DNA of 35,768 nt, counting the filler, from Candidatus Woesearchaeota archaeon (lineage in GTDB: Archaea; Nanobdellota; Nanobdellia; Woesearchaeales; WAPY01), in the NCBI GenBank assembly GCA_049700835.1. It is 3 parts of 3 records of this genome, joined end to end, with 100 filler letters (N's around TTAATTAATTAA, not from the genome) between each part and the next. Parts side by side here need not be neighbours in the genome. Positions count along the whole stretch, not along the records: positions 2,247 to 12,020 come from JBNAUL010000003.1; 2 more parts are not named here. One strand, given 5' to 3'. The notes beneath the pieces were generated by a model. That model was not told where the DNA came from, did no database searches, and was given only the letters and a program-made list of their open reading frames with translations. The stretch's first letter is position 1. Each line of letters opens with the position of its first letter. The position numbers were made by a program, and so were the translations under genes. Positions 2,247 to 21,923 of this stretch are shown here, piece after piece.

Positions 2247-2247
2247 C

Positions 2248-4173
2248 GATAATGTTCATAATTTTGTTAGTTACAGCAATGAAAGCATTGTTAAAGTTGA
2301 TACCCAAGCTCCAAATGCTCCTCCAAATCTTACTGTTAATGACACTTCTTGGTCTCGATACAGAGAACATAATTTTTCTTGGGATACAAGCACTGATTCA
2401 GAATCAGGAATTAATGGTTATTATTATGATTTTGACAACTCAAATCCTGAAGAAACCTCTAATTTTACAACTAATCTGTTTGTTGTTTTGAATTGTTCTG
2501 AGGGAAATCATACTCTCTATGTTAAAGCAAAGGACAATGCTGGCAACATTGGACCTGTATCAACAGTTTCTTGCTTGGTTTATTCTGAAAAAGGAATCAT
2601 CTCTACTGAGATTGGAGCAACTCCTTTCTACACAACAAGCGCCAATCCTCAAACCAAAAGCAGTATTTCTTGTTTGGCTAACTTGCAACAAGGCCAAAGC
2701 TGCAATGTTTCTTGGATTGTCAATGCTACTGGAACTGAAAACACCAATTATGTTTTCTTTGTTTTTGTTAATTCCAGCTATTCAGAAATAACTCCAAGTT
2801 TCAGTAATGAAACTTATATTAAGATTGTTTCAGGAACAAATACTGCTCCTCATTTTATTGGTGATGTTGATGATAACTCCACAATTTCAAACCCAACAAG
2901 ACAGGGTTATAATGTTGTTTTCACAGCAAACGCCAGTGATGATGAAGGAGACATGTATAGGTTGATTGTTTGTACAACCAATTCTACAACTAACGGAGAT
3001 TGTTCTTCTCAAGAAATCTGCAGTTCTAATTTTGTGAGTTCTGGAACTTCAGCAAGTTGTTATCATAATACTAGTTTAGAAACAAACTATAATTATTCTT
3101 GGTATGCTTTTGTTTGCGATGTTTTCTCTGCTTGTTCGGAATCTAACTATGCTAATAGTCCTTATTACATTAACAGGAAGCCAATTGCTTTTGGTGTTGA
3201 TATTTCTCCTAGACCAGCAACCACTAGTGATGACTTAACAGGAAATTATTCTTACTTTGATGCTGATGATGATGTAGAAGGAAACTCTGTTTTTGCTTGG
3301 TACATTAACGGAACAAAAGTAAAGGAAGGTTATGTGGGCGAGGGAATTTATCTTAACAAAACAGAGTTTGGTTTAGGTGATAGAATAATCTTAGAAATAA
3401 CTCCTTGCGATGCTTCTGGTTTTTGCGGAGATGCTAATTCAAGCAGGGTTTTGTTCATTGGAAATTCTCCTCCTGAAAAGATTAATTTGACTTCTCCTGC
3501 TAATGGCGATACAACAGTTCATGACAGAAACACAACATTTGTTTGGGAGCAAGGATTTGATGCTGATGATGACCCATTAACCTATCACTTGCAACTCAGC
3601 AATTCTTCTGATTTTAATTATTTGATTGTTAATGCTTCTGAGATTTCAGGCACAAGTTATACAATACCAATTTATCTTGAACTCAACAAGGTTTATTATT
3701 GGCGTGTTAGAGCATTTGACAGCCAAGATTATGGAGAGTTTTCTGATGTTTGGAATTTTAGCATAGAACCAATTTTGAATATTACTTTGATAAGCAATGC
3801 AACAGAGTTTTACACTCTTTCCAATAATCAGGAGAATGATACTACTGATGATAATCCTGAACCATTTGTTGTTAGGAATTATGGAAACTATGAAGTTAAT
3901 ATTAGCATTAATGCAACTCCTCTGTGGCAATCAGTTGGTTTAGGAACAGAATACTTTAAGTTTAAGGCAGGAATTTATCAAGGAGTTTTGTCCTTTGATT
4001 ATGAATCCTCTCAGGTTGATTGGGCTTACTTTGCTCAAGAACCCCAAAGCATTATTAGAAATTTAAATTACAAGTTTGGAAACAACTCTGCAAGGATCGA
4101 TATTTATGTCAAAGTTCCTGCTCAAGAAGGCGCTGGTTATAGGAGCTCAATAATAGAGGTTAGCAATACTTAA
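2248..4173 (+). CDS. C-terminal part of a large secreted/surface protein with Ig-like and fibronectin type III-like domains (5' truncated)
   Basis: The frame is open from the gap edge (DNVHNFVSYS...VDTQAPNAPP...DSESGINGYYY), 80 codons upstream of the track's TTG start. Later motifs include HTLYVKAKDNAGN, DADDDPLTYHLQLS and YYWRVRAFD. Many N-x-S/T sequons. Confidence 0.85.
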   Translation, partial: DNVHNFVSYSNESIVKVDTQAPNAPPNLTVNDTSWSRYREHNFSWDTSTDSESGINGYYYDFDNSNPEETSNFTTNLFVVLNCSEGNHTLYVKAKDNAGNIGPVSTVSCLVYSEKGIISTEIGATPFYTTSANPQTKSSISCLANLQQGQSCNVSWIVNATGTENTNYVFFVFVNSSYSEITPSFSNETYIKIVSGTNTAPHFIGDVDDNSTISNPTRQGYNVVFTANASDDEGDMYRLIVCTTNSTTNGDCSSQEICSSNFVSSGTSASCYHNTSLETNYNYSWYAFVCDVFSACSESNYANSPYYINRKPIAFGVDISPRPATTSDDLTGNYSYFDADDDVEGNSVFAWYINGTKVKEGYVGEGIYLNKTEFGLGDRIILEITPCDASGFCGDANSSRVLFIGNSPPEKINLTSPANGDTTVHDRNTTFVWEQGFDADDDPLTYHLQLSNSSDFNYLIVNASEISGTSYTIPIYLELNKVYYWRVRAFDSQDYGEFSDVWNFSIEPILNITLISNATEFYTLSNNQENDTTDDNPEPFVVRNYGNYEVNISINATPLWQSVGLGTEYFKFKAGIYQGVLSFDYESSQVDWAYFAQEPQSIIRNLNYKFGNNSARIDIYVKVPAQEGAGYRSSIIEVSNT

Positions 4174-4320
4174 AAACAACAAGGTTTAAAGAGTAGTTAA
4201 AAAAAGAATAAAAACGAGAAAAAATAAAAGATGCATTAAATTAAATTCAAATTAAATTTAAATCAAAAAATTATTTTAAGAAAGAATAAAAAGAGTAAGA
4301 ACAAATAAAATCAATTGAAA

Positions 4321-5682
4321 ATGATCATGTTTTTTTTAAAGGAAAAGAGAAACTCTAATGATTTAAAATCAAAATCAGAAATTTCTTCTTTATTATTTAT
4401 TTTTATTTCAACAATCATGTTTTTTTTGTTTCAGTCAAAAATTGTTTTTGGAATCGGTTTTGCAATTGCTCCTGCTTTCAAGAATGCTGATTTTGTTCCT
4501 TTTTTTAATGACACTGTTAGCATCAGAGTTTACAACAACATAAACTCAACATTGAATGTTTCTGTTTCTATGATTGGAGATTTAAAGGACTATGCTGTTT
4601 TAGAAAAGAATCAGCTTTTAATAAAACCATTTTCTTATGAAACTCTCAGTTTAAAAATTTCTCTGCCTGAAAAAATTGATTTTGGAGAGCACATCTTAAG
4701 AGTTCTTTTTTCAAGCTATGAAACTTCAGGAACAATTGGAAGCGCTCTAACCTTGAACTTTGATTACAAGGTTTTTTTTAAAGAGCAAGAAACCTTAACT
4801 CAAGAGTTTTTTTTATATAAAAATTACCTTGTTCTAAAATTAAAAAACAGCGCTGACAAAGAGATAAGCGGTTTTTCAGAGGTTTATTTTTATGATTTTG
4901 AAAAACAGGTTGGATTTTTGAATAAAACTTTTGTTTTACAACCAAATGCAGAGCTTGTCATTAAGGAAAGGTTGGAAGAAGTTTTGCCTTCAATAGGAGA
5001 ATACTCTGTTTTTATTAAAACTTATTCTCCAAACTTGAATGAGTTGGAAAAGAACTTTACAATTGGAACTCCAGAAATAATTTTAAAAAACATTAATATT
5101 GGCAATGAAACAGGAAGCGTAAGAACTCTTAGTTTTGATTTAGGGCTGAATTGGAATAAACCATTGGATGTTTTTGCAGAGGTTTTCATCATTAACGATT
5201 CAAGAATAATCAGTAGTTTCAAGAGCGCTGCAATAAAAATTTATCCAAACAAAACAGAAAACTTAAAAATGTTCTTAGATTTATCTGGTTTAGAAAATGA
5301 AAAATTTTTGAATTTGAGAATTGCGGTTAATTGCCAAGGCAAAGTATACGAAAACAATGTTAATCTAATAAAAAACAAAAGAGGGGTTTACGAGGTGAAT
5401 AGAATGAACGCTTATTATTTCCTGATAATTTTATTGGCTATGCTAAACTTGTTTTTATTGCTGAGACTAATCTTTTTCAGCAAGAACAAACTTAAGAGAG
5501 TTAAAGAATTAATTAAGGAAACAGAAAATCTTGTTGAGCAGGGAAAACTTAATGAAGCGCTTAAATCATACAAAAAAATAAAAGAACTTTATGACAATTC
5601 TTTGAGTAAAAAAGAAAAGAAAGAAGTTTATGATGATGTTATGAAAGCATATCATAAAATTCACGAACGCTTAAAGAGGTAA
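4321..5682 (+). CDS. Hypothetical membrane-anchored exported protein (signal peptide, Ig-like ectodomain, C-terminal TM, basic helical tail)
   Basis: Hydrophobic N-terminus (LLFIFISTIMFFLF), beta-rich middle, TM YYFLIILLAMLNLFLLLRLIFF, then a K/E-rich tail. Confidence 0.75.
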   Translation: MIMFFLKEKRNSNDLKSKSEISSLLFIFISTIMFFLFQSKIVFGIGFAIAPAFKNADFVPFFNDTVSIRVYNNINSTLNVSVSMIGDLKDYAVLEKNQLLIKPFSYETLSLKISLPEKIDFGEHILRVLFSSYETSGTIGSALTLNFDYKVFFKEQETLTQEFFLYKNYLVLKLKNSADKEISGFSEVYFYDFEKQVGFLNKTFVLQPNAELVIKERLEEVLPSIGEYSVFIKTYSPNLNELEKNFTIGTPEIILKNINIGNETGSVRTLSFDLGLNWNKPLDVFAEVFIINDSRIISSFKSAAIKIYPNKTENLKMFLDLSGLENEKFLNLRIAVNCQGKVYENNVNLIKNKRGVYEVNRMNAYYFLIILLAMLNLFLLLRLIFFSKNKLKRVKELIKETENLVEQGKLNEALKSYKKIKELYDNSLSKKEKKEVYDDVMKAYHKIHERLKR

Positions 5683-5906
5683 TAATTTTTAATCTTATCT
5701 TCATTAATCTTTTTTATTTTGATTTTAGTTTTTTCTTATAAACTTTTTTGGATTTATTTTGAGATTTTTAAGACTGTTTAAAGAGAATAAATTAAAGATT
5801 TAAAGAAGTATACGAAAATGAATGCAAAAAATATTTTTAAAAACAAATTTTGTTGACTGGTCTTATTTTTGGCTTCTAATTTTTTCTGATTTTTTATTTT
5901 TAATAT

Positions 5907-6731
5907 TTATTTTGTTTTCGCTGTTTCCTTAACAACAGGCTTCATTTCCTTCCATGCAAGTTCAAACATTTCCTCTAATGCAGAAGCAAAGAATGGAGTG
6001 TTAACCCAAATTCCGATATCGTATGTTGGATGGACTTCTTTGTCGTCCATAACCATAAACATCATTTCCTTTCCGTCAATTACTATGAACCTTGCCTTTA
6101 GTTTTGCATTTCTTATCTCAGCAATATTCTTTAAGTCCTCAACAGCTTTCATGTTCTCTTTTGTTATAGGAGCAGCAATTCTTATTTTAACACCCCTCTT
6201 TTTTACTGACTCAAGAACCGGCTTTAATCCTTCAACCTTTCTTATCAAGCCATCTGCAGTTGTGATTATAGTGACTGTTTTTTCAGCATTCTTAATCATA
6301 GTTTCCATGTGGTTGTATAAATTGTGCCTTCCTCTCAAACTTCCTGACAAATCAGTAGGCTCAACAAGTTCGATTCCCTGCTTGTGCAGGTTCTTTAGTT
6401 CATCAATAATCTCTGTCTTTCCAACCTCATCTAATTTCTTTATCCTGTTCTCTGACTCCTCTTTCATGTACTTCTTTACTCTTTCAATGACTTCCTCTGG
6501 TTTTACAGCGATGTACTTTATTGGTTTTCCAAACTTCATCACCACAAAACCCTTTTTTTCAAGGCTTTCTAGAACATCATAACTTCTTGATCTTGGCACA
6601 TTTGCAATGTCAGAAAGTTCTCCTGCGGTTGCAACCCCTCTTGACAACAGTGCTGTCCAAATCTTGACTTCGTATAAGTTTAGTGAGAAAAAGTGTCTTA
6701 ACCTGTTCAGAAATTCGTCTTTAACTATCAT
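5907..6731 (-). CDS. trmB: TrmB-family transcriptional regulator
   Basis: N-terminal LNLYEVKIWTALL..ATAGELSDIANVPRSRSYDVLESLEKKGFV...KPIKY winged HTH; C-terminal effector domain (GVKIRI...ARFIVIDGKE); GGAGGG RBS upstream. Confidence 0.92.
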   Translation of the reverse strand: MIVKDEFLNRLRHFFSLNLYEVKIWTALLSRGVATAGELSDIANVPRSRSYDVLESLEKKGFVVMKFGKPIKYIAVKPEEVIERVKKYMKEESENRIKKLDEVGKTEIIDELKNLHKQGIELVEPTDLSGSLRGRHNLYNHMETMIKNAEKTVTIITTADGLIRKVEGLKPVLESVKKRGVKIRIAAPITKENMKAVEDLKNIAEIRNAKLKARFIVIDGKEMMFMVMDDKEVHPTYDIGIWVNTPFFASALEEMFELAWKEMKPVVKETAKTK

Positions 6732-6850
6732 TTTTAGACCCTCCGCGCTTTTTTATTTTTTATAAATCGTGATTTTTTGTGGAAAAAACAAAAACCACAA
6801 ATTTTTATTTTAAAATTTTATTCTGTTTTTATTATTCATTCTTCCTTTTT

Positions 6851-6980
6851 TTACTCTTATTCTGTTATTAATCTCTCTCGTAACCTTTATTGAATTACAA
6901 AGTTTAGTGCTTACTCAGTTGTTTATTTACCCGTTTACTTTACTGATTAATAAGAACATATATTTAAATCTTGCTTTTTG
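6851..6980 (-). promoter_or_regulatory. Putative trmB promoter (purine-rich BRE + TTTAAATA) with repeated AGTAA motifs downstream
   Basis: Minus strand AAAAGCAAGA-TTTAAATA, TATA at 6961-6968; TTACT on the plus strand at 6851, 6911, 6935 and 6940. Confidence 0.45.
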
Positions 6981-7063
6981 CAAACCCTTTTTTAATCAAA
7001 AACTCAAAAAATTGTAACTAATTGATAGTAATTTACCTTGTTTTTTGACAAATTTTTTTACTC

Positions 7064-8104
7064 TTAAGAAACCTTGAATCTCGTTAAAGCAGCAATTCCT
7101 CCAAGCCCCTTGAGTTTTTTTCCTGGCTCAAATTCAGAGTCAATTATGATTATTTTTCCGCCAAAATCCTCTGTTTTGTTAAGTATTGAAGCAAGTTTCT
7201 CGTTGTTGCTTATCTCCTGCATCTTGGAATCCAAAATTAGCAAGGACTTTACAGCCCCATAATCAACAGCTTTTTCAACTTCTTCAAAACCATAAACTGC
7301 TAATCCGTCTTTTGATATTTCAGCCAAAACCTCCTCAACAATTTGAGTTTCCTCTGCAATCCTGCTCTGCTTTAACGCCTGTTTTATTTCAGGCCTTTTC
7401 ATTATTTCATTTATAGAACTTTCGTCAACATAGGCGCAGCTGCTTATTATGCTTTTTTTCTCAATGCTTTCCTTTAATTTTTTTGTTAGGTATTCGCTCC
7501 AAAACCCAGGGCTTGCTATTATTATTGAAGAAGGGTTGTACATTCTGTCGTAATCCTCCAAATTTTTGTTTATCTCTTCATAAAAGTCGCTCGTTTTTTC
7601 ATTGCTTCTATTGACAGCATACTTCTTGTCAACAATTCCTTTTATGTTTGACAGCACCTTGTAGCCCTGTTTGTTTATTACAGCAAACAACGCTTCTTCT
7701 CTGTCAAAAATGCATATCAAAAATTTGTATTCAGGCTTTGAGGCCTCTTTGAGAATATCTAAAACATAATTAGAAATCTTATTCTTGAAAAGAGTTATCT
7801 TTGTTCTAGGAGTTATTGTTAAACTGTGGTAACTGCCTTTTGGAACATCCTCATCGTTGCATTCCAAAATCTTGCCAGAAATCCTGAGGTCCTTTGAGTA
7901 TCTCTGAAAACCTGTTTTTTCAACCTCAATCTTGACTAAAATCTTTGTTCTTACCTTATCGTTACCCTTTTCTATTTTCCTGCTGGAGCTTCCACTGACC
8001 AAATCTCCTTTCATTACAATCTGCGATAGATACCACAAGTCATCATAATTTTCAACCAACAATCCAACAGTTCCTTTTTTCAAATTTTTGCTTAGTATTC
8101 TCAT
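7064..8104 (-). CDS. pelA: Pelota/Dom34 mRNA surveillance (ribosome rescue) protein
   Basis: DDLWYLSQIV..GDLV, LRISGKI, GSYHSL, ASPGF, AVYGFEEV..A...GAV, EPGKKLKGLGGIAALTRF. Confidence 0.96.
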   Translation of the reverse strand: MRILSKNLKKGTVGLLVENYDDLWYLSQIVMKGDLVSGSSSRKIEKGNDKVRTKILVKIEVEKTGFQRYSKDLRISGKILECNDEDVPKGSYHSLTITPRTKITLFKNKISNYVLDILKEASKPEYKFLICIFDREEALFAVINKQGYKVLSNIKGIVDKKYAVNRSNEKTSDFYEEINKNLEDYDRMYNPSSIIIASPGFWSEYLTKKLKESIEKKSIISSCAYVDESSINEIMKRPEIKQALKQSRIAEETQIVEEVLAEISKDGLAVYGFEEVEKAVDYGAVKSLLILDSKMQEISNNEKLASILNKTEDFGGKIIIIDSEFEPGKKLKGLGGIAALTRFKVS

Positions 8105-8297
8105 TTCAAAAACAGAAAAACATATATACTTATTTAAAATTATTCATTAAACTATAGTAAAATATAAAACATTAAAAATATTAGAATTAATAAAACAAAT
8201 AAAGCATTAAAATAGATTGAATTTGTTTGTTTTAAAAATTATAGCAATTAGCTTTAATTCAAAAAAAATCACAAAAAATCAATCTGCAGGTGGTAAT

Positions 8298-9485
8298 ATG
8301 AGAAAAAAAGCCCAGACCATAAGCGCTAGTTATGCAGGAGGTTTGATAATAGCAATCGCTGTTTTAATATTCTTTTATGTTCTGCTAATCCCACCTGAAG
8401 CAAGGAGGGAATTGCTTAACCAAACAAGCAAAAACGAGTCCAAATCAGAGAATCCAGTAGAAGGAGAATATGTTCTGCTCTTGGAAAACCCTGGAAGAAT
8501 AATGCCAAAAACAATAACAGAGAAGTATTCTGAAGGGCACAACCTGAACGATGTAAGGGTTTATTCAATAACGCAGTCAGTCACCATAAAGAGAATAAAT
8601 CCATTTTATATAGGAGCAACATTTTTTTCTCAAGACAAAAAGTCATTTGTTTTCAAGATTGAGGATTTGAAAACGATAAAGAATGTGATTTTGAGTTTCA
8701 ATGCAGAATCAATGAAGGGGAGGTTAATAATAAAACTCAACGGAGTTGAAATATTCAATTCTGAAATAAAAACTCAAAACCCAGAGCCAATCGTTCTTGA
8801 TCAGGATTTGTTAGGAGAAGAAAACACTCTTGAATTTTCTGTTTCAAAGCCGTCTTTGTTTTCAAAGAATTACTATGATTTGAAGGATATTAGGATATTA
8901 GGCTATAAAACAGATTTGACCAGAGTAAAGAGCACCCAAACATTTCAAATTGTTCCTTCAGAATACCAAAGTTTGGAAAGCATGAGATTAAAATTTTTCA
9001 TTGATTGCTACTCAAGGGAAACAGGAAAAGTAAAAATAAACCTGAATGGCTACGAACTTAGTTACTTCACCCCTGATTGCGGCTCAGCAATGGTTTTTGA
9101 TTTTCCAGCATACTATTTGATTTCAGGACAGAACACCATTTATTTTGAGATAGAGAATGGCGACTACTTGATATACCAACTTAGATTAGAGCCTGTTTTT
9201 AAGGAGATAACAAATCCGACATACTACTTCCAAGTGCCTGAAGACGAGTATAAAAAAATAATAAACGAGAGCAAAAAGGTTGTTCTAAGAATGAGGTTCG
9301 CTGACGCTTCTGAAAAAGAAGCGAAGATTTACATCAATGGCTATGTCATGGGACTGACAACTTCGGATCTGATTTTCAACAGAACAATAGACAAGAATTA
9401 TATCTACAAAAACCTGAACTCTCTGAAGATAGAACCTGAAAAGATACTTGACATCACAGAATTGAAGGTTTATATTGAATCATAA
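8298..9485 (+). CDS. Exported protein with class III (prepilin-like) leader and repeated beta-sandwich modules
   Basis: GGTGG RBS then ATG at 8298: MRKKA/QTISASYAGGLIIAIAVLIFFYVLL. Three internal repeats of I.LNG/ING....GENTL/GQNTI/NLNSL. Confidence 0.8.
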   Translation: MRKKAQTISASYAGGLIIAIAVLIFFYVLLIPPEARRELLNQTSKNESKSENPVEGEYVLLLENPGRIMPKTITEKYSEGHNLNDVRVYSITQSVTIKRINPFYIGATFFSQDKKSFVFKIEDLKTIKNVILSFNAESMKGRLIIKLNGVEIFNSEIKTQNPEPIVLDQDLLGEENTLEFSVSKPSLFSKNYYDLKDIRILGYKTDLTRVKSTQTFQIVPSEYQSLESMRLKFFIDCYSRETGKVKINLNGYELSYFTPDCGSAMVFDFPAYYLISGQNTIYFEIENGDYLIYQLRLEPVFKEITNPTYYFQVPEDEYKKIINESKKVVLRMRFADASEKEAKIYINGYVMGLTTSDLIFNRTIDKNYIYKNLNSLKIEPEKILDITELKVYIES

Positions 9486-9541
9486 TTTCTTTTTTAACCC
9501 TTTTTATTATTTTGTAAAAATAAACAGACTGCATAAACCGA

Positions 9542-11719
9542 ATGAAAAAAGAGGTGTTAGATTTAATGACTGGAGAAAAGGGAGGAGGCAATGAAGAAAA
9601 AACAAACTTGTTTGCAAATTTTACAAACAGCATTTCTTCAACATTAAAGAATTTTGGAGAGAAAATAAAAGGTTTTTTCAGCTCAGTTTTCAGTAAGAAG
9701 AATAGGTCTGAAAAATCTGATGACAAAAAACCAAGAAATCTGATTCATGACACGCACACCTCTGATTTAGTCCATAAGATAGACAGCAAATTATTGCTTG
9801 AAGTATCGCTGATTGCAGGAATATTGGCAGTATTGTATTGGATTGGGATTTTGAGGTTCAACATATTAGGAATTTTCACTGCAGTCATCGTTGTGCTTAT
9901 TGTCTTAATAAGTCTTGGAAATCCTGAAAAAAGAAGAACAAGGTTCATTTGGCTTTTGGTTTTTGGGATATTGTTCTTGCTTGCTCCTTATTACCTGCCA
10001 TTTATTACCACTTTGCTTCCAAGAGAGCTCGCAATCTTTTTTAAGGGAGGCCCTGTTGGGCAAAAAGAGATTTACGGAGCTTCTTTTCAAACAAGAACAA
10101 GCAGAGGATTTAAAGAATTGAGTGCTGAATGGGTTGATAGACTTAAGAAGAGCCAAGAGATGATTAATGAAAGGATAAATTGCGCGATGGGAGAGTGCCC
10201 TGAAGGAGAAGCAGAGGGTCCAAAGATAGGAATTAATCTTTACGAACCAAAGCCGTTTGTTGAGAAAAAATATGTTGTTGGAGACGATATCTCATTTTCA
10301 TCTGTAATTGAGGGAGTTAACCTTGACATTTACCCTGAAAAAAAATTGAAGGTTGAGTGTTCTATTGACAAAAAAGAGTTAACGCCTACGCCAAATGAAA
10401 TTCCTTTTTCTGATTTAAGCAACAATCAAAGAATAATAACCTGCAATGGTAGAATAAGGGATAATGATGATTTTATTAACGAATTGAATGTCAGCGTTGT
10501 CTTTGACTTCACAACAGAATCAGAGTTAAAAATGTACATAATGAAGAGAGAAATAAGAGATAGTTTATACCAAATTTTTGGTCCTGATTTTATGTACTCT
10601 GTTTTTGGAATCAATGTTGAAGGAATTGCAAAGTTCAATGACGGCCCAATAAATCTTGGAATAGCAACCCCTCAAAAGATTATTGCATTATCAGAAGATG
10701 AGAAAACAACAGAACTTTACATTGCTCTTACAAACCAATGGTATGGGTTCAACGGCTTTATTACAAAGATAAAGAACATAGAAATATTTCTACCAGAGGG
10801 GGTTGAAATAACAAATTATGATGATCAAGCATGCCCTTTTGTAAAGAGCGGAGACCATTATGTTATAAGTTCAACAAAATCAGAAGAGCCGCCTGTTCAT
10901 CTGTTGAGAAACTTTGTTTGCAGTTTGCAATTCAACAAGAAGGATTTTACAGAGCATCCTCTATGGATGCCTTCAATAAAAGTTGTTTCTGAGTACGAAT
11001 ACAGAATATCGAAGTCAACAACAATAAACATTTACAAAACAAAGGAGCAGCTTGAACAGCAGCTTGAGCAACATACAGGGAAAACTTCAGATTCAACAAC
11101 AACTTCTAATGATGGAACTACAACTTCTAGTGAAGGAACAAAAACTGCAAGTTCTGAGTGGAGTTGGCCTGCTGGAAAGTATAATGGAGAGTATTCAATT
11201 TACAATTGTTATGGCATTGGTTGGGGTTATAGTTCTGATTTTCATCATGGTTTTGACATAGAAGCAGATGGAGATGAAAGCTATAAGGCAGACATCTTTG
11301 CTGTTTCTGATGGAAGTGTTGAAACAGTTGTTGACGGCTGTCCTGAATGCAAGTGCATAAATGGAAACGAGGCATGTTGTTCCTGCAATGGGCAGAGTTA
11401 TGGAAACTATGTTATAATAAATCATGGAAATGTTAATGGAAAAAATGTTAAAACGCTCTATGCTCATTTGAAAAGCGGAAGCATAAAAGTCAGCAAAGGA
11501 GATGATGTTTCTAAAGGGCAGATTATTGCAACCATGGGTTCCTCAGGATACTCTACTGATGTTCACCTGCATTTTGAGGTTTTTGAAGACGGTTCAAGGG
11601 TGAATCCAATAAACTATTTTGATAAGAACAGCGTAACTTTAAAAATGATTAATCCTGACTGCAAGGGCAAGGATGCTTTTGATGTTTGCACAAAACCAAA
11701 ACCCGAGAGTTGTCCGTAA
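9542..11719 (+). CDS. Multi-TM membrane-anchored protein with large ectodomain, Ser/Thr linker and C-terminal peptidase M23 domain
   Basis: About three N-terminal TM helices; linker TSDSTTTSNDGTTTSSEGTKT; M23 motifs WP, HHGFD (HxxxD, 11243-11257), YGNYVIINH, TLYAHL, V.KGD.V.KGQ.I..MGSSG.ST..HLHFEV (HxH, 11564-11572), VNP. Confidence 0.93.
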   Translation: MKKEVLDLMTGEKGGGNEEKTNLFANFTNSISSTLKNFGEKIKGFFSSVFSKKNRSEKSDDKKPRNLIHDTHTSDLVHKIDSKLLLEVSLIAGILAVLYWIGILRFNILGIFTAVIVVLIVLISLGNPEKRRTRFIWLLVFGILFLLAPYYLPFITTLLPRELAIFFKGGPVGQKEIYGASFQTRTSRGFKELSAEWVDRLKKSQEMINERINCAMGECPEGEAEGPKIGINLYEPKPFVEKKYVVGDDISFSSVIEGVNLDIYPEKKLKVECSIDKKELTPTPNEIPFSDLSNNQRIITCNGRIRDNDDFINELNVSVVFDFTTESELKMYIMKREIRDSLYQIFGPDFMYSVFGINVEGIAKFNDGPINLGIATPQKIIALSEDEKTTELYIALTNQWYGFNGFITKIKNIEIFLPEGVEITNYDDQACPFVKSGDHYVISSTKSEEPPVHLLRNFVCSLQFNKKDFTEHPLWMPSIKVVSEYEYRISKSTTINIYKTKEQLEQQLEQHTGKTSDSTTTSNDGTTTSSEGTKTASSEWSWPAGKYNGEYSIYNCYGIGWGYSSDFHHGFDIEADGDESYKADIFAVSDGSVETVVDGCPECKCINGNEACCSCNGQSYGNYVIINHGNVNGKNVKTLYAHLKSGSIKVSKGDDVSKGQIIATMGSSGYSTDVHLHFEVFEDGSRVNPINYFDKNSVTLKMINPDCKGKDAFDVCTKPKPESCP

Positions 11720-11929
11720 TATTGACTTAATACAAAATAAATTAATGTAAAATAAGTAAAAATAAATGTAAAAGATTTTAAAGATAAATTTTGATAAAGG
11801 ACAGGATTTGCAATGGAATTTAACAAACAATAAAAAATCAAGTAAAAAATCAAGAATAATAAAGAAATAATTAAAAATAATGAACAAAAATGAAAAAAAT
11901 TTTAACAAAGTTTAACAATTTGTTTTAAA

Positions 11930-12020
11930 ATGATTAAATCAAGAAAAGATTTTTTGAAAAAGGAAAAAGCAAGGTTTGTTTCAGCGAATTCATTGCTATT
12001 GATTGTATTGATTTTATTGA
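11930..12020 (+). CDS. N-terminus of an exported protein, truncated by the contig end
   Basis: MIKSRKDFLKKEKARFVSANSLLLIVLILL..., a basic region followed by a hydrophobic stretch, running into the N linker. Confidence 0.5.
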
Positions 12021-12120
12021 NNNNNNNNNNNNNNNNNNNNNNNNNNNNNNNNNNNNNNNNNNNNTTAATTAATTAANNNNNNNNNNNNNNNNNNNNNNNN
12101 NNNNNNNNNNNNNNNNNNNN
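12021..12120. other. Artificial contig linker N44-TTAATTAATTAA-N44
   Basis: Same design as 2147-2246. Confidence 0.97.
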
Positions 12121-12327: not shown

Positions 12328-13164
12328 AAACAGAAAACTTTTTATTTTTCTGATATTACTGTTGGGGATTTTGTTTTGGGTTTTGATTTTGAAAATAACA
12401 AATTTATTAATGCTAGTGTTTTGAAGGTATTTCATGTTTTGAAAGAGAGCGTTGTTTATAACTTCAGCTTATTTAATGGTTTTAATTTATTTGTAACTCA
12501 AGAACATCCAATTTATATTTTGAACTATAGTAATTTTGGTGTTTTTTTTGGCTAAGAACTTGAATGTTGGAGATCCTATTGCTTTTTATGATGCAGATTC
12601 CAAATCATTTAAGGAAATAAAAATAGTTAAAAAAGATAGTTTTGTTATTAATTCGACTTATTATAATTTTGAAACAACTTCAGGCAATTATTTTGCTAAT
12701 GGTGTTTTGGTTCATAATGGAGCTGCTCCATCGCCTGCTACTACAAATCCTGATTTAGGAGATCTTCTTGTTTTTCAGGTGAGGAGCTTGTTTTAACTTC
12801 AAATGGTTATGTAAGATTGGATTCTTTAAAAGTCGGTGATGTTGTATTTACTTCTAATGGTTGGGATGTTATTAGCGCTTTGGATGTGCATAATAATGTT
12901 TTTGGGATTTATGAGTTGGTTTTGGAAAATGCTGATAAAATTTTTGTAACAGGAAACCATCCTGTTTTAACTCATTCTGGTTGGAAAAGAGTTGAAGATT
13001 TAAGAGCAAATGATTCTCTTTATTTTTATGATAACTTATTTGGAAAATTTAAAAATATTAGGATTGTTGGTAAAAATTGGCATCTTATCAATTTAACTGT
13101 TTATTCTTTAAGAACGAATTTTGGTTCTGATTTTTTGGTTGAAGGAATTGTTTTTAAGCAATAA
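12328..13164 (+). pseudogene. Two tandem Hint (intein/hedgehog-like) domains, frame-disrupted
   Basis: Hint 1: SDITVGDFVLGFD...FVTQEHPIY, then a frameshift at the T8 run 12542-12549, then LAKNLNVGD...YNFETTSGNYFANGVLVHN. After a linker and a second frameshift near 12755-12768, Hint 2: CFSGEELVLTSNG...LKVGD...VTGNHPVLTHSGWKRVEDL...VYSL...FLVEGIVFKQ-stop. Confidence 0.85.
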
Positions 13165-13482: not shown

Positions 13483-16400
13483 ATGAAGACAAGCAAACAA
13501 ATGTTGTTTTTAACACTTTTCTTTGTAGTTTTTTGCTCTGAGATTGTTTTTTCTTTTGGATCACCATCTCCGAATCAATTTAGCGATATAGGTTGCTGCG
13601 TTAGTCCTGATTACAGCATAAATTTTGATAGAAGTAGGGTTGAGTGTGAAAATTTAGGAGGAATTTATTTTGATCAACTTTGTGAAGATCTTCCATATCT
13701 TAATATTATGGGTTGTTGTGTAGATAATAGTTCTGTGACAGGAAATAAGTGCGCTTATTCAACTCAAGCATGGTGTCAAAATCAAGGAGCAAATTTTATA
13801 ACTGGCATGCAAAAAGAGGAGTGTAGTGATTATGAGTATTCATTTTCTAATTGTAAGCAAGAAAACATATTACCTGAGAACTGTACTGAAAAATTTGGAG
13901 CGGATGAAAAATGCATAAACAACACTATTTTTTATTGTGATAAAACAACCGGAGAATTAACTCCAAATTGTATTTTATGCAATAATTGCGCTCCATTTGT
14001 TTGTGACAAATCAACAGGAAAGTGTGATTTAAATAAAATTGAATCAGAACTTACAGGCGAAACTCGTAATTGTTGTTATTTTGAAGAACAGTGTCCTCAA
14101 GAGCAAAGAAATGCGAGCTTGCAATGTCCTACTAATAAACCAATTGGTTGCAATGTTGAGTGCACTATTTTTCCTTGCAAGCTTGGTTTTAAAATAAATT
14201 CTAATGATAATAAACAAAAGCCATTGTGTTGGTGCGGAAATAAACCTTATAATACTTCAACTGAAGAGGGTTATTGCTGCGGGGAAAGTTTTGAGGATTC
14301 TTATTATTTAACCCAAATGTGTGGTTCTGCTATTGGAATAATTTATGGGTATATAAAGAATTCAAGCGGAAATGGCATAAAAAATGCAAGGGTAATAGTA
14401 ACATCACAACTATCTCAAAGATTAAGCCCACCTTCAAATACAAGTGGTTTTTATGAAATTAAGGATTTAATACCAGGAGATTATTCTTTAATAGCAATTG
14501 CTTTTGATTATAATCCATCACAACAAAGCATTAATTTAATAGATTCTTCAGAAGTTAATTTTACTCTTTACAAGCCAGGAGAACAGCAATGCATTCCTAA
14601 AAGCGTTAACTTGACTTATTTTGCTGCACAGCATGTTAAGGGAAAACCATTTGTAAAATTGGAATGGAATTTAAATCAGCTTGGTTGCGAAAATATAATA
14701 TCAAGCTTTATCATTAAAAGAAATGATTGGGGTATCGCAAAATATGTTTCAGGAAATGAAAGATCATTTATTGATGAAGAAACTTCATGGGGCACTACTT
14801 ATAATTATTCAATTCAAATCCTATTTAAGGTAGGAAGTTTAAGCAACATTTTATATGCAGAAATAACAACAGGAGATTCTATTTGCGAGAATGTTTTTGA
14901 AGGGCAAGAATTCTGCTATAACCCAGAAACAGGTCAGAAAAAAGGAAATGCTAATTACAGGAGAACATGCGACGAAAATAATAAAATATCAGAATATGTT
15001 AGTAATGCGCCTAATGCAGGAACAAATACAGATTGCGAAAACTATAATCAAATATGCGTTGTTCTAAAAAACAAAAAAACAGATTGCAAGCCAAAATCTA
15101 ATTGCTTAATAAAGGGTTTGCCTCTGGGTTTGTTCTTTAGCATTCCTTCTTGCATTCAAGATTTCTGCGTTTATGATTATTCAACCACCAATGTGGATGC
15201 TTGCTATGATTGCACAAAGTTTGAATCAGGACAAATGTTTTTAAAGACATGCTATGATTTTAATTCAGAATTTGCTTGCAAGAATAATAATTGCAATTTA
15301 GACTGCACTTGGAAATACACAAATTTAGAATTCAACAGAGGAATATGCTATCCTATAGAGCAAGTTGAGAATGAAAGTGCTTGCGATGTTTGCAATCAAT
15401 TGTTTATGCACTGCACTTCAGAAGATTGTTCCTTATTAGGAAATTGTTATAAAAACAAGGATTCTTTGTGCATTAATTGCGATGGAGTAAGATGCGAAGA
15501 CTTTAGTGACAGGTTTAGTTGCGAAGGAAATTCTTTAACTCAATCAGTTTGTGGTTTTAATTTCAGCAATGATGCTTGCAACTTAAGAATTTGCAGGTGG
15601 AATTATACAACAAATTCTTGCTTTAAAGACGGGAATTATGACGGCATTCCAGATTGTGGTAACAAAGAGGGAGAATTTCGTGATTTATGCATCAGTGACA
15701 CGCAACCACCTAGATTTACAATAAATGCACAACAACCGCTTGATTCTTTAGTTATAAGTAAGGATACAGATGAGATCAAACTAACTGCAAAAGAAGATAT
15801 AATTGATTTTAGTTATTGTTTTGACACAACAAACACTTGCTGCCCTGAAAAACAATTAAATATTTTCCAAAATAGAAATGTTGTGTTTAAACCAAAAGTA
15901 GATGAAAAAGATTACATTCAATATAATAGCAACAACATTTACTACTTTAGGTATAAAGCAATAGATACAAACTTTAACATTGCTCCAATAGAAAGCATTA
16001 AGATGTTTGTTATAGCGCAGCCTTTTAACTTTAATTTAACATACGGCTTTTATCCAAAAGAAGATGGTTATGATCTTATGATTATGGCACAAACATCAAG
16101 ACCAGCTAAATGCTCTTATGAATTGACTCCTAACGTTGATACCAGTCTTAATTATACAAACTTTGGAACTTATACTGATTCGTTTGTAGCATTGTTTAGT
16201 GGAATCGCAGAAACAAGCTTTAACGCAAAGTTTACTTGCTATGATGAAGTTGGAAATGAAATAATATTCACTCCAAACTCATTTAAAATATCATATTTTA
16301 AGGATGGGCTTATTAATATAACAATAACAACTCCTTATTATCAAAGTTCAACGCCTATAGTGAGTTGGGGCGATTACGAAGTTAATATTAAAGTAGTTCC

Positions 16401-16686
16401 AGGAGTAACTATAAACAAGGTGCGTGTTGATATAAAGAAAGAAGGAAATATAATTTACTTTAAGGACTTGAATCTTAAAAATTTTGACAGCGAGAATGGC
16501 ATTTACTATTATACATTAACTTTGGATAAGAATTCAGATGATTTGGTTAAGAATTTAAGAGAGGTAGCAGGTTATTTTGATGTAGATGCTGTTTACAATG
16601 GAGTTAAGGTTAAAACAGAATATATTCTTGGAAAAGAATTTGCAATTTATACAGGGTTGCCAAAACCAACAATAACAATAACTTAA
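13483..16686 (+). CDS. Large secreted cysteine-rich protein with carboxypeptidase-regulatory-like and FN3-like domains
   Basis: AGAGG RBS and signal peptide; GCC...C...GG repeats; GIIYGYIKNSSGNGIKNARV...GFYEIKDLIPGDYSL (CarboxypepD_reg-like); VKLEWN...SFIDEETSWGTTYNYSI (FN3-like); second Cys-rich block; Ig-like C-terminus; no C-terminal TM. Confidence 0.85.
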   Translation: MKTSKQMLFLTLFFVVFCSEIVFSFGSPSPNQFSDIGCCVSPDYSINFDRSRVECENLGGIYFDQLCEDLPYLNIMGCCVDNSSVTGNKCAYSTQAWCQNQGANFITGMQKEECSDYEYSFSNCKQENILPENCTEKFGADEKCINNTIFYCDKTTGELTPNCILCNNCAPFVCDKSTGKCDLNKIESELTGETRNCCYFEEQCPQEQRNASLQCPTNKPIGCNVECTIFPCKLGFKINSNDNKQKPLCWCGNKPYNTSTEEGYCCGESFEDSYYLTQMCGSAIGIIYGYIKNSSGNGIKNARVIVTSQLSQRLSPPSNTSGFYEIKDLIPGDYSLIAIAFDYNPSQQSINLIDSSEVNFTLYKPGEQQCIPKSVNLTYFAAQHVKGKPFVKLEWNLNQLGCENIISSFIIKRNDWGIAKYVSGNERSFIDEETSWGTTYNYSIQILFKVGSLSNILYAEITTGDSICENVFEGQEFCYNPETGQKKGNANYRRTCDENNKISEYVSNAPNAGTNTDCENYNQICVVLKNKKTDCKPKSNCLIKGLPLGLFFSIPSCIQDFCVYDYSTTNVDACYDCTKFESGQMFLKTCYDFNSEFACKNNNCNLDCTWKYTNLEFNRGICYPIEQVENESACDVCNQLFMHCTSEDCSLLGNCYKNKDSLCINCDGVRCEDFSDRFSCEGNSLTQSVCGFNFSNDACNLRICRWNYTTNSCFKDGNYDGIPDCGNKEGEFRDLCISDTQPPRFTINAQQPLDSLVISKDTDEIKLTAKEDIIDFSYCFDTTNTCCPEKQLNIFQNRNVVFKPKVDEKDYIQYNSNNIYYFRYKAIDTNFNIAPIESIKMFVIAQPFNFNLTYGFYPKEDGYDLMIMAQTSRPAKCSYELTPNVDTSLNYTNFGTYTDSFVALFSGIAETSFNAKFTCYDEVGNEIIFTPNSFKISYFKDGLINITITTPYYQSSTPIVSWGDYEVNIKVVPGVTINKVRVDIKKEGNIIYFKDLNLKNFDSENGIYYYTLTLDKNSDDLVKNLREVAGYFDVDAVYNGVKVKTEYILGKEFAIYTGLPKPTITIT

Positions 16687-16766
16687 TTTTATTTTTTTAT
16701 AATTTGTTATGTTTTATTTTTAATTTTTGTTATTGCATTTTTATTTTTTATTTGAGAGGATGCAGA

Positions 16767-19700
16767 ATGATTTTTTCAAAGGATAAAAAAAGATGTGATA
16801 TGCACAAAGAGTTAGGTTTATTTATGTTTTTCTTCTTAATAATTTTAATCCTTTTTGTTTTAACAGAGAATTCTCTTGCAATCGATCTTGCAATATCGCA
16901 AACATCCAATCCTTTGCCTCTTATAAGAGTTGATTTTACAGAACCGGTAAATGTTACAAATGCAGTTTTGTTAAATATGGATGCAAAAAAACAAATCGGT
17001 ATAGAACTTCAAGAAAATATTAATAATCAAACTTTGAAATACTTACCAAAAGAGAATTTAATAGAAGGTCTTTACAACTTTACGATATTCTATTCTGATT
17101 TAAAAATCGAAGGGCTTAATGATTTTAAAACTTATCTTTTCAGAGTTAATTTTTCAATTCCAAGAAAACCAGTTAATCTAACAATCAATACTGTTGATAG
17201 TTTAGAAGCAGGAGAAACAGTAGATTATTTGATAGAAGCAAATTATGAAGATGGTTCAAGTTTAACAATAACTCACAACAGTGAATTAGAGAATTATTTA
17301 AGTGTTACTTCTAATGATACAAGAATTTTAACTGTTTCAAAGAACCCTGCAAAAATAACAGGTATTAATCCAGGATTAGCTGAGATAATGGCATATTATC
17401 TTCAAGCGAACGGTTCAAAAGCAATAGAAGTTAAAGAACCGCCTTTTATAAAAATGCTAACTCCTTGGAATAATGGAACTCATGCTTATGCAAGTTCTGA
17501 TAAATTTGATATAATTATTTATACATTCAGAGATTCTGAATGCAATTGGTCAACTGCAACAAATAACAAAGAGTACATGCAATCTTTTAATGAAGAAAGC
17601 AATGAAAACATTTTTAATTATCATATTTTAAGAGATTTTTCTTTTATTGGAAGTTCAACAAACTTTTATGTCTATTGCATAGCAAATGATAATAGCAGAG
17701 AAGAGTTAAAAACTTATTTGATACGAAAAGAAACAAACGTTCCAAAGATAACATTGCAAGTTAATAATGTTTATAATCCAATTTATGGAACAAGATTATT
17801 TATAAATAATATAAACGCATATACTGATAAACCAGCGGTTTGCAAATATGCATATGATCTTGAAGATATGTTTGATTATAACTACCAGGAGTTAAATTTT
17901 GATGCCTTGCCTTATTATTTTAAAACTTATCAGGATAAATTAGAGTCAGAAATAGATTTTTCAACTTATGTAACCTCTCACAAAATAACGCTTCAAAATT
18001 TAGAGGATAAAAATAGTTACAAGGTTGTTGTTATTTGCAAAGGGCTTTCTAATCTAACTTCTGAGCAAGCAACAGCAACATTTGTTGTGGATAGTGGAGC
18101 AGAACCAAAAATGGAGATTTTAAGCCCTCCAAGGTATATCTCAACAACAGGAACAAGTAAAAGCATTAGTTTTAATGTTTGGACAAACAGATTTGCTCTT
18201 TGCGAGTATTCAAATGTTTCAAACTTTGAACCTAAAGAAGGAATGAGTTCAACAGATAGTTTAAATCATAGACTTCACAAGACATTTCAAGTAGGAACAT
18301 ACACTGTTTACTTCCTCTGCACTTTTTATACTACAAACGATGAAATTTCAAAGGATTATACTTTTACTATAGATAATTCTGCTCCAATTCTTTACTATGT
18401 TAATGATTCCACAGAATACGCAAATCCAGAACAATCAGGCACTAATAATAGTTTAAGGTTTAAAGTTATTGCAGAGGATAACGAGTCGGGTTTGGTTAAA
18501 ATTAACTTTTCTTTGTGGCAGAAAGGTTCAAATGAAAGCAATAAAAAAATCCTTGATTGGAGATTGATAAATTATGATAACTCTTGGATTAGAGTTGAGA
18601 ATTTAAATCTTGAGAACATGACAACATATTACTTTAATGTTAGCGTTATTAATGATGTAGGAATTTCTTCTAACTTTAGCGTTAGCGATGGGGTGACAAT
18701 AAACACTTCTCTATTGCCTCCAATGAATTTATGTAGCAATTATGTTTTCAACCCAGAAATTAATGAAACAGATGTTGATTGCGGCGGAAATATTTGCAAT
18801 AAATGTACTTATGGAAAAAATTGCACTCTTGATTCTGATTGTTTGACTGGTTTTTGTAACAAGATTAAAAAGAAGTGCGGTTTTGCAAATGAAACGAATG
18901 AAACCTGTAATAACAACAAAAAGGATGGAGATGAAACAGATGTTGATTGCGGTGGCTCTTGTGATCCTTGCGCTAAGGGAGAATCTTGCAAAAAGAATTC
19001 TGATTGCAAGTCAGGATTAGAATGTTCATCTGGAAAATGCTCTGAAAAGAAAGAATGCAATAGAGAGATAGACGAAGATTGCGATGGAGTAGAAGATGAT
19101 TTTGATTTATGCCCACAAACTCCTGCTGGAGAGGGCGTGGATGAAGATGGTTGTTCTGATTCTCAAAAGAAGTCTGAAGAGGAAAAAGATACAGATGGAG
19201 ATGGAATGCCTGATTGGTGGGAGAAAAAGTATGGTTTGGATCCTAATGACCCAAGCGATGCTAACGAAGATTTGGATAAGGATGGTTACACTAATTTAGA
19301 GGAATATAATAATAAAACAGACCCAACTGTTAAAAACAAAAAAACTACAGAAGAAACAACAACAAGAGAAAAGAAAGGTTTTCCTATTTTATTATTGATT
19401 TTATTATTGATTCTTATTGGAGGTTTGATTGGATTTTTGGTTTACACTCAATTTGTTAAGCCTAAAGGAAAAACCAAGGTTAAAAAACAAGAGAAAACTC
19501 GAGAGATAAAATTGTCTGAAATAAAACAACCAACATCTCAATCTCTAAGCGCAACCCAACAGAAATTACCAGGTATTCCAAAAGTTGAATTTAAGCAGGA
19601 ACCAATGTTCAAGAAGCCAGAACAAGTCGCTCCATTAACTCCAGAACAACTTGCTGCAATAAGGAGAAAAGCAAGGGTTGAGGAGAAGAAGAGAATATTT

Positions 19701-20087
19701 GAGCAGTTTGAAGAAAAACCATCAATTAAAAAATCAGAAGAGGAAACCTCAAAACTTAAGAGCAAAGAAGAATCAAAAGAATCAAAAGCAGAAACATCTA
19801 AAAAAACAGAAGAAAAGACAAGTGAAGGGCTAAAAGAAAAAATAGAAAAAGAAGAAAAATTAGAAAAGAGGATAAATCCAGAATTAGGGATTTTGGAGTT
19901 TGAACTTCCTGAAAAAGAGCGCAAGAAACTGATGGACTTGGAAGGAAAAGATGTTTTTGAAAGATTAGAAAAACTTGGAAAGAGAGTTGAAGGAAAAAAT
20001 ATTGATGAGGAACTAAAGAAACTTACAAAAGGAAAAAAGGATGTTTACAAGGAATTATCAAAACTCGCAGAAAAGAAGAAGAAATAA
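16767..20087 (+). CDS. Large single-pass surface protein: Ig-like repeats, ETDVDCGG Cys repeats, thrombospondin type 3-like Ca-binding motifs, TM, charged cytoplasmic tail
   Basis: GAGAGGA precedes ATG 16767; signal peptide; ETDVDCGG twice; DEDCDGVEDDFDLCPQTP...VDEDGC; DTDGDGMPDWWEKKYGLDP...DLDKDGYTNLEEY; TM ILLLILLLILIGGLIGFLVY; about 200-aa K/E-rich tail. Confidence 0.87.
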   Translation: MIFSKDKKRCDMHKELGLFMFFFLIILILFVLTENSLAIDLAISQTSNPLPLIRVDFTEPVNVTNAVLLNMDAKKQIGIELQENINNQTLKYLPKENLIEGLYNFTIFYSDLKIEGLNDFKTYLFRVNFSIPRKPVNLTINTVDSLEAGETVDYLIEANYEDGSSLTITHNSELENYLSVTSNDTRILTVSKNPAKITGINPGLAEIMAYYLQANGSKAIEVKEPPFIKMLTPWNNGTHAYASSDKFDIIIYTFRDSECNWSTATNNKEYMQSFNEESNENIFNYHILRDFSFIGSSTNFYVYCIANDNSREELKTYLIRKETNVPKITLQVNNVYNPIYGTRLFINNINAYTDKPAVCKYAYDLEDMFDYNYQELNFDALPYYFKTYQDKLESEIDFSTYVTSHKITLQNLEDKNSYKVVVICKGLSNLTSEQATATFVVDSGAEPKMEILSPPRYISTTGTSKSISFNVWTNRFALCEYSNVSNFEPKEGMSSTDSLNHRLHKTFQVGTYTVYFLCTFYTTNDEISKDYTFTIDNSAPILYYVNDSTEYANPEQSGTNNSLRFKVIAEDNESGLVKINFSLWQKGSNESNKKILDWRLINYDNSWIRVENLNLENMTTYYFNVSVINDVGISSNFSVSDGVTINTSLLPPMNLCSNYVFNPEINETDVDCGGNICNKCTYGKNCTLDSDCLTGFCNKIKKKCGFANETNETCNNNKKDGDETDVDCGGSCDPCAKGESCKKNSDCKSGLECSSGKCSEKKECNREIDEDCDGVEDDFDLCPQTPAGEGVDEDGCSDSQKKSEEEKDTDGDGMPDWWEKKYGLDPNDPSDANEDLDKDGYTNLEEYNNKTDPTVKNKKTTEETTTREKKGFPILLLILLLILIGGLIGFLVYTQFVKPKGKTKVKKQEKTREIKLSEIKQPTSQSLSATQQKLPGIPKVEFKQEPMFKKPEQVAPLTPEQLAAIRRKARVEEKKRIFEQFEEKPSIKKSEEETSKLKSKEESKESKAETSKKTEEKTSEGLKEKIEKEEKLEKRINPELGILEFELPEKERKKLMDLEGKDVFERLEKLGKRVEGKNIDEELKKLTKGKKDVYKELSKLAEKKKK
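18763..18952 (+). repeat. 22-bp direct repeat encoding the ETDVDCG modules
   Basis: ATGAAACAGATGTTGATTGCGG at 18763-18784 and 18931-18952. Confidence 0.8.
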
Positions 20088-21370: not shown

Positions 21371-21386
21371 AAATTAAAAATAAAAA

Positions 21387-21902: not shown

Positions 21903-21923
21903 TAAATTTGTTATTCATTAAAA

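Follow-up and report, generated by a model that had tools for sequence, protein, structure and literature searches.

The subject of this study is a pair of adjacent genes, ORF1 and ORF2 (open reading frames 1 and 2), in a 35,768-nucleotide stretch of DNA (hereafter the window) from a Candidatus Woesearchaeota archaeon (assembly GCA_049700835.1; G000 below). It is probable, in our judgment, that ORF2 encodes a membrane-anchored, outward-facing M23 murein endopeptidase, carried on an ancient envelope scaffold of DPANN archaea and acting on bacterial walls. According to this hypothesis a scaffold protein – an N-terminal transmembrane anchor plus an Ig-like ectodomain – drawn from an ancient envelope gene block of Woese- and Pacearchaeal-type DPANN would have acquired, at its C-terminal end and by way of a Ser/Thr linker, a grafted enzyme domain of the M23 (LytM/lysostaphin) type. 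The enzyme would cleave cross-linking peptides in bacterial peptidoglycan that is in contact with the surface of the archaeon, be it from a host, from prey or from debris of walls, and from its membrane tether its action is expected to be contact dependent; ORF1, the constant neighbor, may hold glycan or position the complex, should the two proteins form one.

In the window three pieces of the genome are strung together by artificial spacers (N44-TTAATTAATTAA-N44, at 2147-2246 and 12021-12120), and adjacency across the spacers is not biological. Positions 1-2146 correspond to contig C2 of G000 from 206129, positions 2247-12020 to contig C3 (1-9774; window-to-contig offset 2246) and positions 12121-35768 to contig C4 (1-23648). 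Both ORF1 and ORF2 lie in the N-free middle piece, 2247-12020, together with archaeal TrmB and Pelota genes. The features of ORF2 are as follows.

9542..11719, + strand: ORF2, 725 amino acids; predicted cytoplasmic N-terminal tail, three predicted transmembrane helices, long helix, Ig-like core, Ser/Thr linker, M23 domain and Cys-bearing tail (sequence, hydropathy, Pfam, model)
9785..10018, + strand: membrane region, residues 82-159, three predicted transmembrane helices, with a K/R-rich loop (NPEKRRTR) between the second and third (hydropathy)
10199..11071, + strand: core ectodomain, residues 220-510, family-defining; predicted Ig-like/CARDB/arrestin-like beta sandwiches (model)
11072..11161, + strand: Ser/Thr-rich linker, residues 511-540 (composition)
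11144..11641, + strand: Peptidase_M23 domain, fold residues 535-700; Pfam match at residues 567-689, 11240-11608 (Pfam, model)
11315..11392, + strand: Cys-rich insertion inside the M23 domain (C600, C603, C605, C612, C613, C615; sequence)

An earlier annotation of this DNA (the original prediction) had described a multi-pass membrane protein in which a Ser/Thr linker is followed by an M23 domain with all of its zinc ligands, and every element of that description was recovered. Hydrophobic stretches cover residues 82-130, with room for two helices, and 133-159, and a greedy scan returns three transmembrane segments; 17 of the 30 linker residues are Ser or Thr, and model confidence (predicted local distance difference test, pLDDT) drops below 50 at 517-537. 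At the C-terminal end a profile search places Peptidase_M23 (PF01551) over residues 567-689 with a score of 73.3 bits, where the cut-off is 28.7 (E 1.9e-20), and the match covers profile positions 2-96 of 96. The catalytic and zinc residues are complete: HxxxD (H568/D572), the His of YAHL (H642) and HxH (H675/H677). Residues 535-697 of the ORF2 model superimpose on 4bh5 with Z 17.6 (root-mean-square deviation, rmsd, 2.4 Å; 127 residues aligned), followed by 2gu1 zinc peptidase (Z 16.7), 9gy1 (16.0), LytM 2b0p (14.7) and lysostaphin 4lxc (14.1), with StM23 within Z 14-16. The C-terminal half also aligns with the M23 proteins Csd3, ShyA and NMB0315, including YAHL and GSxGxST..HLHFE. We infer that the domain is an active M23 peptidase. 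Set beside LytM, lysostaphin, zoocin A and ShyA it has the same fold (Z 14-16) and the same HxxxD, H and HxH residues, at 28-32% identity when structurally aligned; however, the bacterial enzymes are found in the periplasm or outside the cell and have SH3b, LysM or coiled-coil partners, whereas in ORF2 the domain contains a six-Cys insertion and is mounted on an Ig-like stalk with an archaeal polytopic anchor. No recognized wall-binding domain (LysM, SH3b, PG_binding etc.) was detected in ORF2 by Pfam at E<=0.01.

The best matches to the ORF2 M23 domain outside its own family are of a paralog type found in the same genome (40% identity), and next come sequences of bacterial or phage type (CC_PcsB, phage tail lysozyme and phage lysozyme, with Firmicutes names; 35-55%), the nearest of which are 40-47% identical. 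The paralog of G000 is a second M23 protein of 553 amino acids (G000:C1:159947-161608, L001:931-2592; Pfam 5.2e-27), the nearest relative of the ORF2 domain outside the family, and it has at the same place a counterpart of the Cys-rich insertion, in the form CxxC...CxxC. Its N-terminus (MKKRGS, then directly a hydrophobic helix) is itself class-III-like. Two trees were computed, with FastTree (127 rows) and with IQ-TREE in quick mode (43 rows: all 11 of the ORF2 family, 4 paralogs and every fourth of the other 112). In these, the ORF2-family domains sit on long branches and the window domain falls closest to the 553-residue paralog, without strong support. The trees, which answer to the phylogenetic comparison that had been proposed, favor neither one origin nor several for the ORF2-family M23 tails. 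M23 domains as such are common in the order, with Pfam matches in 89 of 201 genomes and in 66 of the 153 of high quality.

Relatives of ORF2 carry other domains in place of M23. The ORF2 family combines a variable polytopic N-terminus with a conserved core ectodomain of ~190-290 residues, marked by four near-invariant cysteines (Cys273, Cys301, Cys431 and Cys460 in ORF2), and a variable tail. Tails were compared over 40 loci around ORF1 homologs, picked for contig room from published genomes and comprising 623 ORFs: the tail is absent (0-9 residues) in 10, short (39-59 residues) in 3 and at least 100 residues long in 27. Among these 27, Pfam (E<=1e-4) assigns Peptidase_M23 to 7, SLT to 6 and GH73 glucosaminidase to 2; a further tail matches SLT weakly (E 0.002), which leaves 11 without Pfam assignment. 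When the core by itself was searched against 1.84 billion representatives, 108 matched at E<=1e-3, 106 of them new. Fifteen of the new proteins carry murein hydrolases: SLT in 13, M23 in 1, Peptidase_M15_4 in 1 and Amidase_3 in 1 (together with SLT). Because many of the representatives are fragments, this share is a lower bound; other Pfam domains occur in just two (DUF4112; beta/gamma-crystallin with I36). Even within the GTDB family of G000, relatives in another genus (G164; P0006) have kept the scaffold and bear a different tail, so the tail has been exchanged among fairly close kin. Tails of this last type (P0006, L084, L045 and L046) have nothing in Pfam and no match at E<=10 in a sequence search of the PDB; alignment to SLT tails with hhalign (probability 26.6%, E 7e-4; ME-T aligned with QE-S, AYN with AYN) is only suggestive of an SLT-like nature. 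Judged from these sequences, the M23 domain at the C-terminus of ORF2 is accessory, and the conserved scaffold takes several murein-cutting tails interchangeably. Nothing speaks more strongly for peptidoglycan as the target of the tail than the use of one scaffold position by five unrelated catalytic families that have only murein as common substrate.

The scaffold gene belongs to a conserved block, in the order Pelota, ORF1, ORF2 and usually three lipoprotein-like paralogs, which ORF1 and ORF2 lead. Its flanking members in the window are the following.

7064..8104, - strand: Pelota, the divergent upstream neighbor (Pfam eRF1_1 2.9e-26, eRF1_3 9.1e-22, eRF1_2 1.4e-07)
11930..12020, + strand: start of ORF3, first 91 nt, cut by the artificial spacer (lipoprotein-like, 316 amino acids in the genome, G000:C3 9684-10634)

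Genome search detected the ORF1 family in 194 of the order's 201 genomes, among them 150 of the 153 of high quality (a tally that takes in the unpublished genomes G132, G112, G183 and G121, on which the other claims do not rest). In a phylum-wide sample the figure is 195 of 201, and 41 of the 47 genomes there that represent other orders of the class have it. Within the class ORF1 is thus a core gene of nearly universal occurrence. In all 40 loci the next large (>=200 amino acids) ORF on the same strand, at a gap of -25 to 536 nt, is an ORF2 homolog (iterated profile, E<1e-5), and none other of the 623 ORFs matched. A Pelota homolog stands beside the block in 38 of the 40 (blastp), and lipoprotein-like paralogs (signal peptide plus Cys, ~310 amino acids) follow in 38, with three copies in 29. 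In G000 these are ORF3, ORF4 and ORF5 (C3 9684-10634, 10762-11688 and 11950-12882), for which Pfam gave no match. Their signal peptides terminate in SGC, which in these archaeal proteins recalls a bacterial lipobox, and they share 28-30% mutual identity.

A block of this kind invites another account of the same enzyme in the same location, namely scavenging: amino sugars and peptides would be gathered from free wall debris or dead bacteria instead of a living host or prey. The small genome (1.07 Mb) and the glycan-binding-type, CBM-like (carbohydrate-binding-module-like) folds of ORF1 fit this account, as does the status of the block as a vertically inherited core locus by Pelota (38/40), unlike patchy weapon genes; Strock et al. 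(PMC12352652) mention scavenging as an alternative that is still open. Yet the block holds no transporter gene (ORF3-5 being without Pfam match), a membrane-tethered enzyme is limited to material in contact with the cell, and hydrolase tails occur in a minority of lineages only. Pure scavenging thus seems to us unlikely, although it deserves to be kept in view.

No match to Mur_ligase_M or to a transpeptidase (penicillin-binding protein) was found in the G000 genome, nor to SEDS, nor to SLT; these are searches of a 98.66%-complete genome and not proof of absence. Because the organism shows no murein-synthesis markers, bacterial peptidoglycan is the most likely substrate, much as had been argued originally for a foreign wall. 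The order's only SEDS matches (FtsW/RodA; G173:C10:17913-19013, G173:C13:60-1088 and G110:C7:27-473) come from 2 of its 201 genomes and may be bacterial contigs in the bins, because G173 has 4% contamination. The original prediction had also allowed for a pseudomurein-bearing target, and this has become less likely because SLT, GH73, M15_4 and Amidase_3 occupy the same position in relatives.

The same searches bear on a self-directed role, in which M23 would act as a housekeeping protease on the archaeon's own envelope or proteins (Gly-rich surface proteins, cell separation). Some M23 enzymes cut non-murein, Gly-rich substrates, and a near-universal, single-locus, syntenic block suggests a housekeeping envelope function. 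It is the scaffold, however, that is universal: the M23 tail is lineage-specific (7/40), the alternative tails SLT, GH73, Amidase_3 and M15_4 have murein alone as common substrate, and Mur ligase, penicillin-binding protein and SEDS are without match in the genome. We regard a self-directed role as quite improbable.

Action on bacterial walls further presupposes that the M23 domain faces outward. The AlphaFold model of ORF2, built from 45 family sequences, has a mean pLDDT of 74 and exceeds 90 for most of residues 220-510, where the closest folds are generic Ig-like/CARDB/arrestin-like sandwiches (Z 8-9.8). Similarity of this core to the soluble domain of STT3/AglB (Foldseek E ~1e-5) was judged unconvincing (TM-score 0.18, rmsd ~15 Å), and in the protein atlas the ORF2 core and ORF3 fall in hypothetical DPANN clusters only. 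A home-made positive-inside count orients the window protein with its N-terminus in and its C-terminus out, by a margin of 3; it predicts the C-terminus outside for 33 of 45 family members, and every prediction with a margin of at least 5 is of this kind. Such a count is weak evidence; with the Ser/Thr linker, the Ig-like fold and the conserved cysteines, all of which fit the same placement, the M23 domain is most likely outside the cell, as originally proposed.

Several findings weigh against an outward-facing enzyme directed at bacterial walls. The best fold matches of the M23 domain include the non-catalytic LytM domains of EnvC, DipM and SpoIIQ, so that fold alone is no proof of activity, and the Cys-rich insertion is modeled with low confidence (pLDDT <50 at 601-617). 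Twelve of the 45 family members are predicted with the C-terminus inside, all by small margins and by a crude predictor. A recognized hydrolase (E<=0.05) is lacking in 24 of the 40 scaffold loci, 10 of them tail-less, and 91 of the 106 representatives from the core search are likewise without one: with most scaffold homologs in this state, the core function of the block should be something else. Finally, of the two metagenome runs that contain the locus, the independent run X2 has short near-identical pieces only, none of which bridges the linker-M23 junction; no X2 contig covers 11175-11524.

This last point, together with the typically bacterial distribution of M23 domains and the bacterial or phage-type nature of the closest outside relatives, would suit an artefact in which bacterial M23 DNA had been fused to archaeal DNA by misassembly or mis-binning. 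The assembly speaks otherwise. G000 comprises 1.07 Mb in 4 contigs with 0.25% contamination, and C3 is a contig of 116,013 bp with no N and uniform G+C (0.32). The stretch is present in two hot-spring metagenome runs from different studies (0.93 and 0.40 of sampled words); in the other run, X1, which may be the source sample of the genome, a single contig of 2,597 nt covers 8954-11550, running from the end of ORF1 through ORF2 and into the M23 domain. The same scaffold-M23 fusion occurs in relatives from other sources at 73-77% identity, one of them named Woesearchaeota, and M23 sits on seven further ORF2 homologs; close homologs carry the NCBI name Candidatus Woesearchaeota. The Cys-rich insertion common to the ORF2 domain and the genome's other M23 gene adds to this. 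Checks of binning and read support, the precaution attached to the original prediction, leave misassembly very unlikely as the source of the M23-scaffold gene; an artefact is hardly credible and already close to refuted, and the locus is real and archaeal.

The original prediction had coupled the M23 protein to a pilus-like structure, on the basis of a KKA/Q class III-like leader on ORF1, 56 nt ahead of ORF2. Both the MRKKAQ motif and the spacing are confirmed.

8298..9485, + strand: ORF1, 395 amino acids; class-III-like N-terminus, one predicted membrane helix, flexible linker and three CBM-like jelly rolls (sequence, hydropathy, model)
8298..8387, + strand: ORF1 N-terminus, MRKKAQ motif (8298-8315) and hydrophobic helix (model residues 10-30, 8325-8387; motif scan, model)
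8466..9482, + strand: ORF1 ectodomain, three predicted tandem beta-sandwich/jelly-roll domains (~57-205, 206-303 and 304-395; model)
9486..9541, + strand: A+T-rich intergenic spacer between ORF1 and ORF2, 56 nt

ORF1 has one strongly hydrophobic stretch (Kyte-Doolittle windows 5-36, maximum 2.89), and in 39 of 40 homologs a [KR]x?[GAS][QEDVA] motif precedes the hydrophobic core or helix. The strict form, [KR]x?[GA]Q plus helix, occurs in just 9 of 1076 long frames of G000, small pilin-like proteins among them, and a Peptidase_A24 prepilin peptidase is encoded at G000:C1:444331-444633 (61 bits, E 1.1e-16). Because the N-terminal motif is conserved and the genome has this peptidase, class III processing of ORF1 is plausible from its sequence. 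The motif, its rarity and its occurrence in small pilin-like proteins, the peptidase, and the co-orientation of ORF1 and ORF2 across a 56-nt gap could all be read in favor of a pilin identity for ORF1, with the M23 protein as a weapon coupled to a pilus-like fiber reaching the target wall.

The predicted structure of ORF1 does not support this view. Its model (pLDDT 87; >90 across most of 60-395) shows a helix (10-30), a short helix (33-40) and a low-confidence linker (41-55), followed by three separate jelly rolls, whereas in the pilin fold a helix is packed on a globular beta head. In the homologs 6-12 small or polar residues separate the putative cleavage site (MRKKA|Q) from the hydrophobic core. 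Neither Class_IIIsignal nor any other pilin profile of Pfam matches ORF1 at E<=0.01; the sole match at that threshold is CBM-like (PF14683, E 0.0023) and lies below its cut-off. The modeled jelly rolls resemble PNGase F (Z 11.8, rmsd 2.1, 108 aligned), the carbohydrate-binding domains of BcsB (Z 11.6, rmsd 18.8, 201 aligned, spanning two domains) and CBM6/29/35/36 (Z 8.3-9.6), middling values that show no function. On this model ORF1 is a membrane-tethered protein of glycan-binding type and not of pilin fold. Moreover, this near-universal gene of the class is partnered with the ORF2 scaffold in 40 of 40 loci regardless of M23, which is present in 7, and the evident cluster of pilin-like genes in the window (20306-23182) sits on another contig. 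We thus consider ORF1 improbable as a pilin, and the pilus link of the M23 protein is weak. Beside ORF1, where no systematic search was made, neither an assembly ATPase nor a platform gene came to light.

A class III-like signal on a protein that is not a pilin would not be without parallel: ORF1 combines a K-[GA]-Q type motif before a helix with a glycan-binding-like ectodomain, in a genome with a prepilin peptidase. In this it resembles what we take to be a comparable case, the sugar-binding proteins of the Sulfolobus bindosome, non-pilin surface proteins with class III signal peptides; it differs from them in the small-residue spacer between motif and hydrophobic core.

The cluster at 20306-23182, rejected as support for the pilus link because it is on C4, encodes four small or medium proteins with canonical class III-like N-termini (KRG|IIES..., KKAQ|VEIIG..., KVGA|ELSV...), which are probably true pilins. 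A further class-III-like protein (KKAQ|ISLFVILG, 282 amino acids) lies ~3.4 kb past the block at G000:C3:16262-23324 and is followed by a protein of 2066 amino acids.

Archaeal murein hydrolases have precedents, from which the ORF2 system can be distinguished. Among 3,706 archaeal genomes, Strock et al. 2025 (PMC12352652) found 175 with modular hydrolases, Nanoarchaeota being prominent, and they report M23 from 4 genomes of Nanoarchaeia; they show that Woldo (M23) and Danwoldo (GH73) of Halogranum salarium kill a bacterium. Like Woldo as described there, ORF2 has an M23 domain of bacterial type and belongs to an archaeon that does not make murein; Woldo and Danwoldo, however, are soluble, Tat-secreted proteins with PG_binding_1, whereas ORF2 has three predicted transmembrane helices, a conserved scaffold and a place in a core syntenic block. 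The survey counted only architectures of catalytic plus wall-binding domains, and ORF2, with no known wall-binding domain, is outside that definition. Castelle et al. 2021 (PMC8204110) place large proteins that are extracellular and have an SLT domain (fam00969) in a module of 51 families typical of Pace- and Woesearchaeota, and Vigneron et al. 2022 (PMC9723730) report GH23 genes from five Woesearchaeota genomes assembled from metagenomes. These too are DPANN surface proteins with a murein-cleaving domain and are proposed there to bind or degrade bacterial walls, and SLT is likewise the commonest tail on our scaffold overall (6/40 loci; 13/106 representatives). They differ, in the passages considered, in being SLT/GH23 only, with no shared scaffold, no ORF1/lipoprotein block and no interchange with M23, GH73, M15_4 or Amidase_3; fam00969 may nonetheless prove to be the ORF2 family. 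The scaffold, the block and the exchange of five hydrolase types are not described in the passages considered from the three papers, whose supplements may list the families.

Next to nothing is known of the hosts on which Woesearchaeota and related lineages depend, and murein hydrolases of DPANN had earlier been noted as isolated SLT or M23 genes. What this analysis adds is that such hydrolases share one membrane-anchored scaffold within an ancient, near-universal envelope gene block, and that at least five murein-specific catalytic families occupy the same scaffold position, with a producer that has no match to the murein-synthesis markers tested. One locus, one scaffold and exchangeable tails together offer a handle on which DPANN lineages touch bacterial walls, and how, and single out a five-gene surface module that merits structural and imaging work. 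A bolder conjecture, which we put forward tentatively and would not be surprised to see fail, is that the Pelota-linked block is the core surface contact machine of Woese- and Pacearchaeal DPANN, and that bacteria-dependent lineages have repeatedly armed its scaffold with M23, SLT, GH73, M15_4 or Amidase_3. If this is true, then the genome of an uncultured DPANN lineage would tell, through its tail type, whether the lineage breaches bacterial walls and by what means, and hosts, long an open question in DPANN, would become predictable from sequence.

Other genes of the window include, on the contig of ORF1 and ORF2, two proteins of 561 and 455 amino acids without Pfam match upstream of TrmB (2488-5682), the second with an N-terminal hydrophobic segment. 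On C4, two giant, Cys-rich secreted proteins of 1067 and 1127 amino acids (13483-20087) are adhesin-like, one with CarboxypepD_reg and the other with a bacterial TSP3 repeat. Short ORFs at 12376-13164 (C4), by a 100-N gap, show Hint/intein-splicing-like similarity (PF14890, E 2.9e-06, below cut-off) and may represent a fragmented Hint-domain gene.

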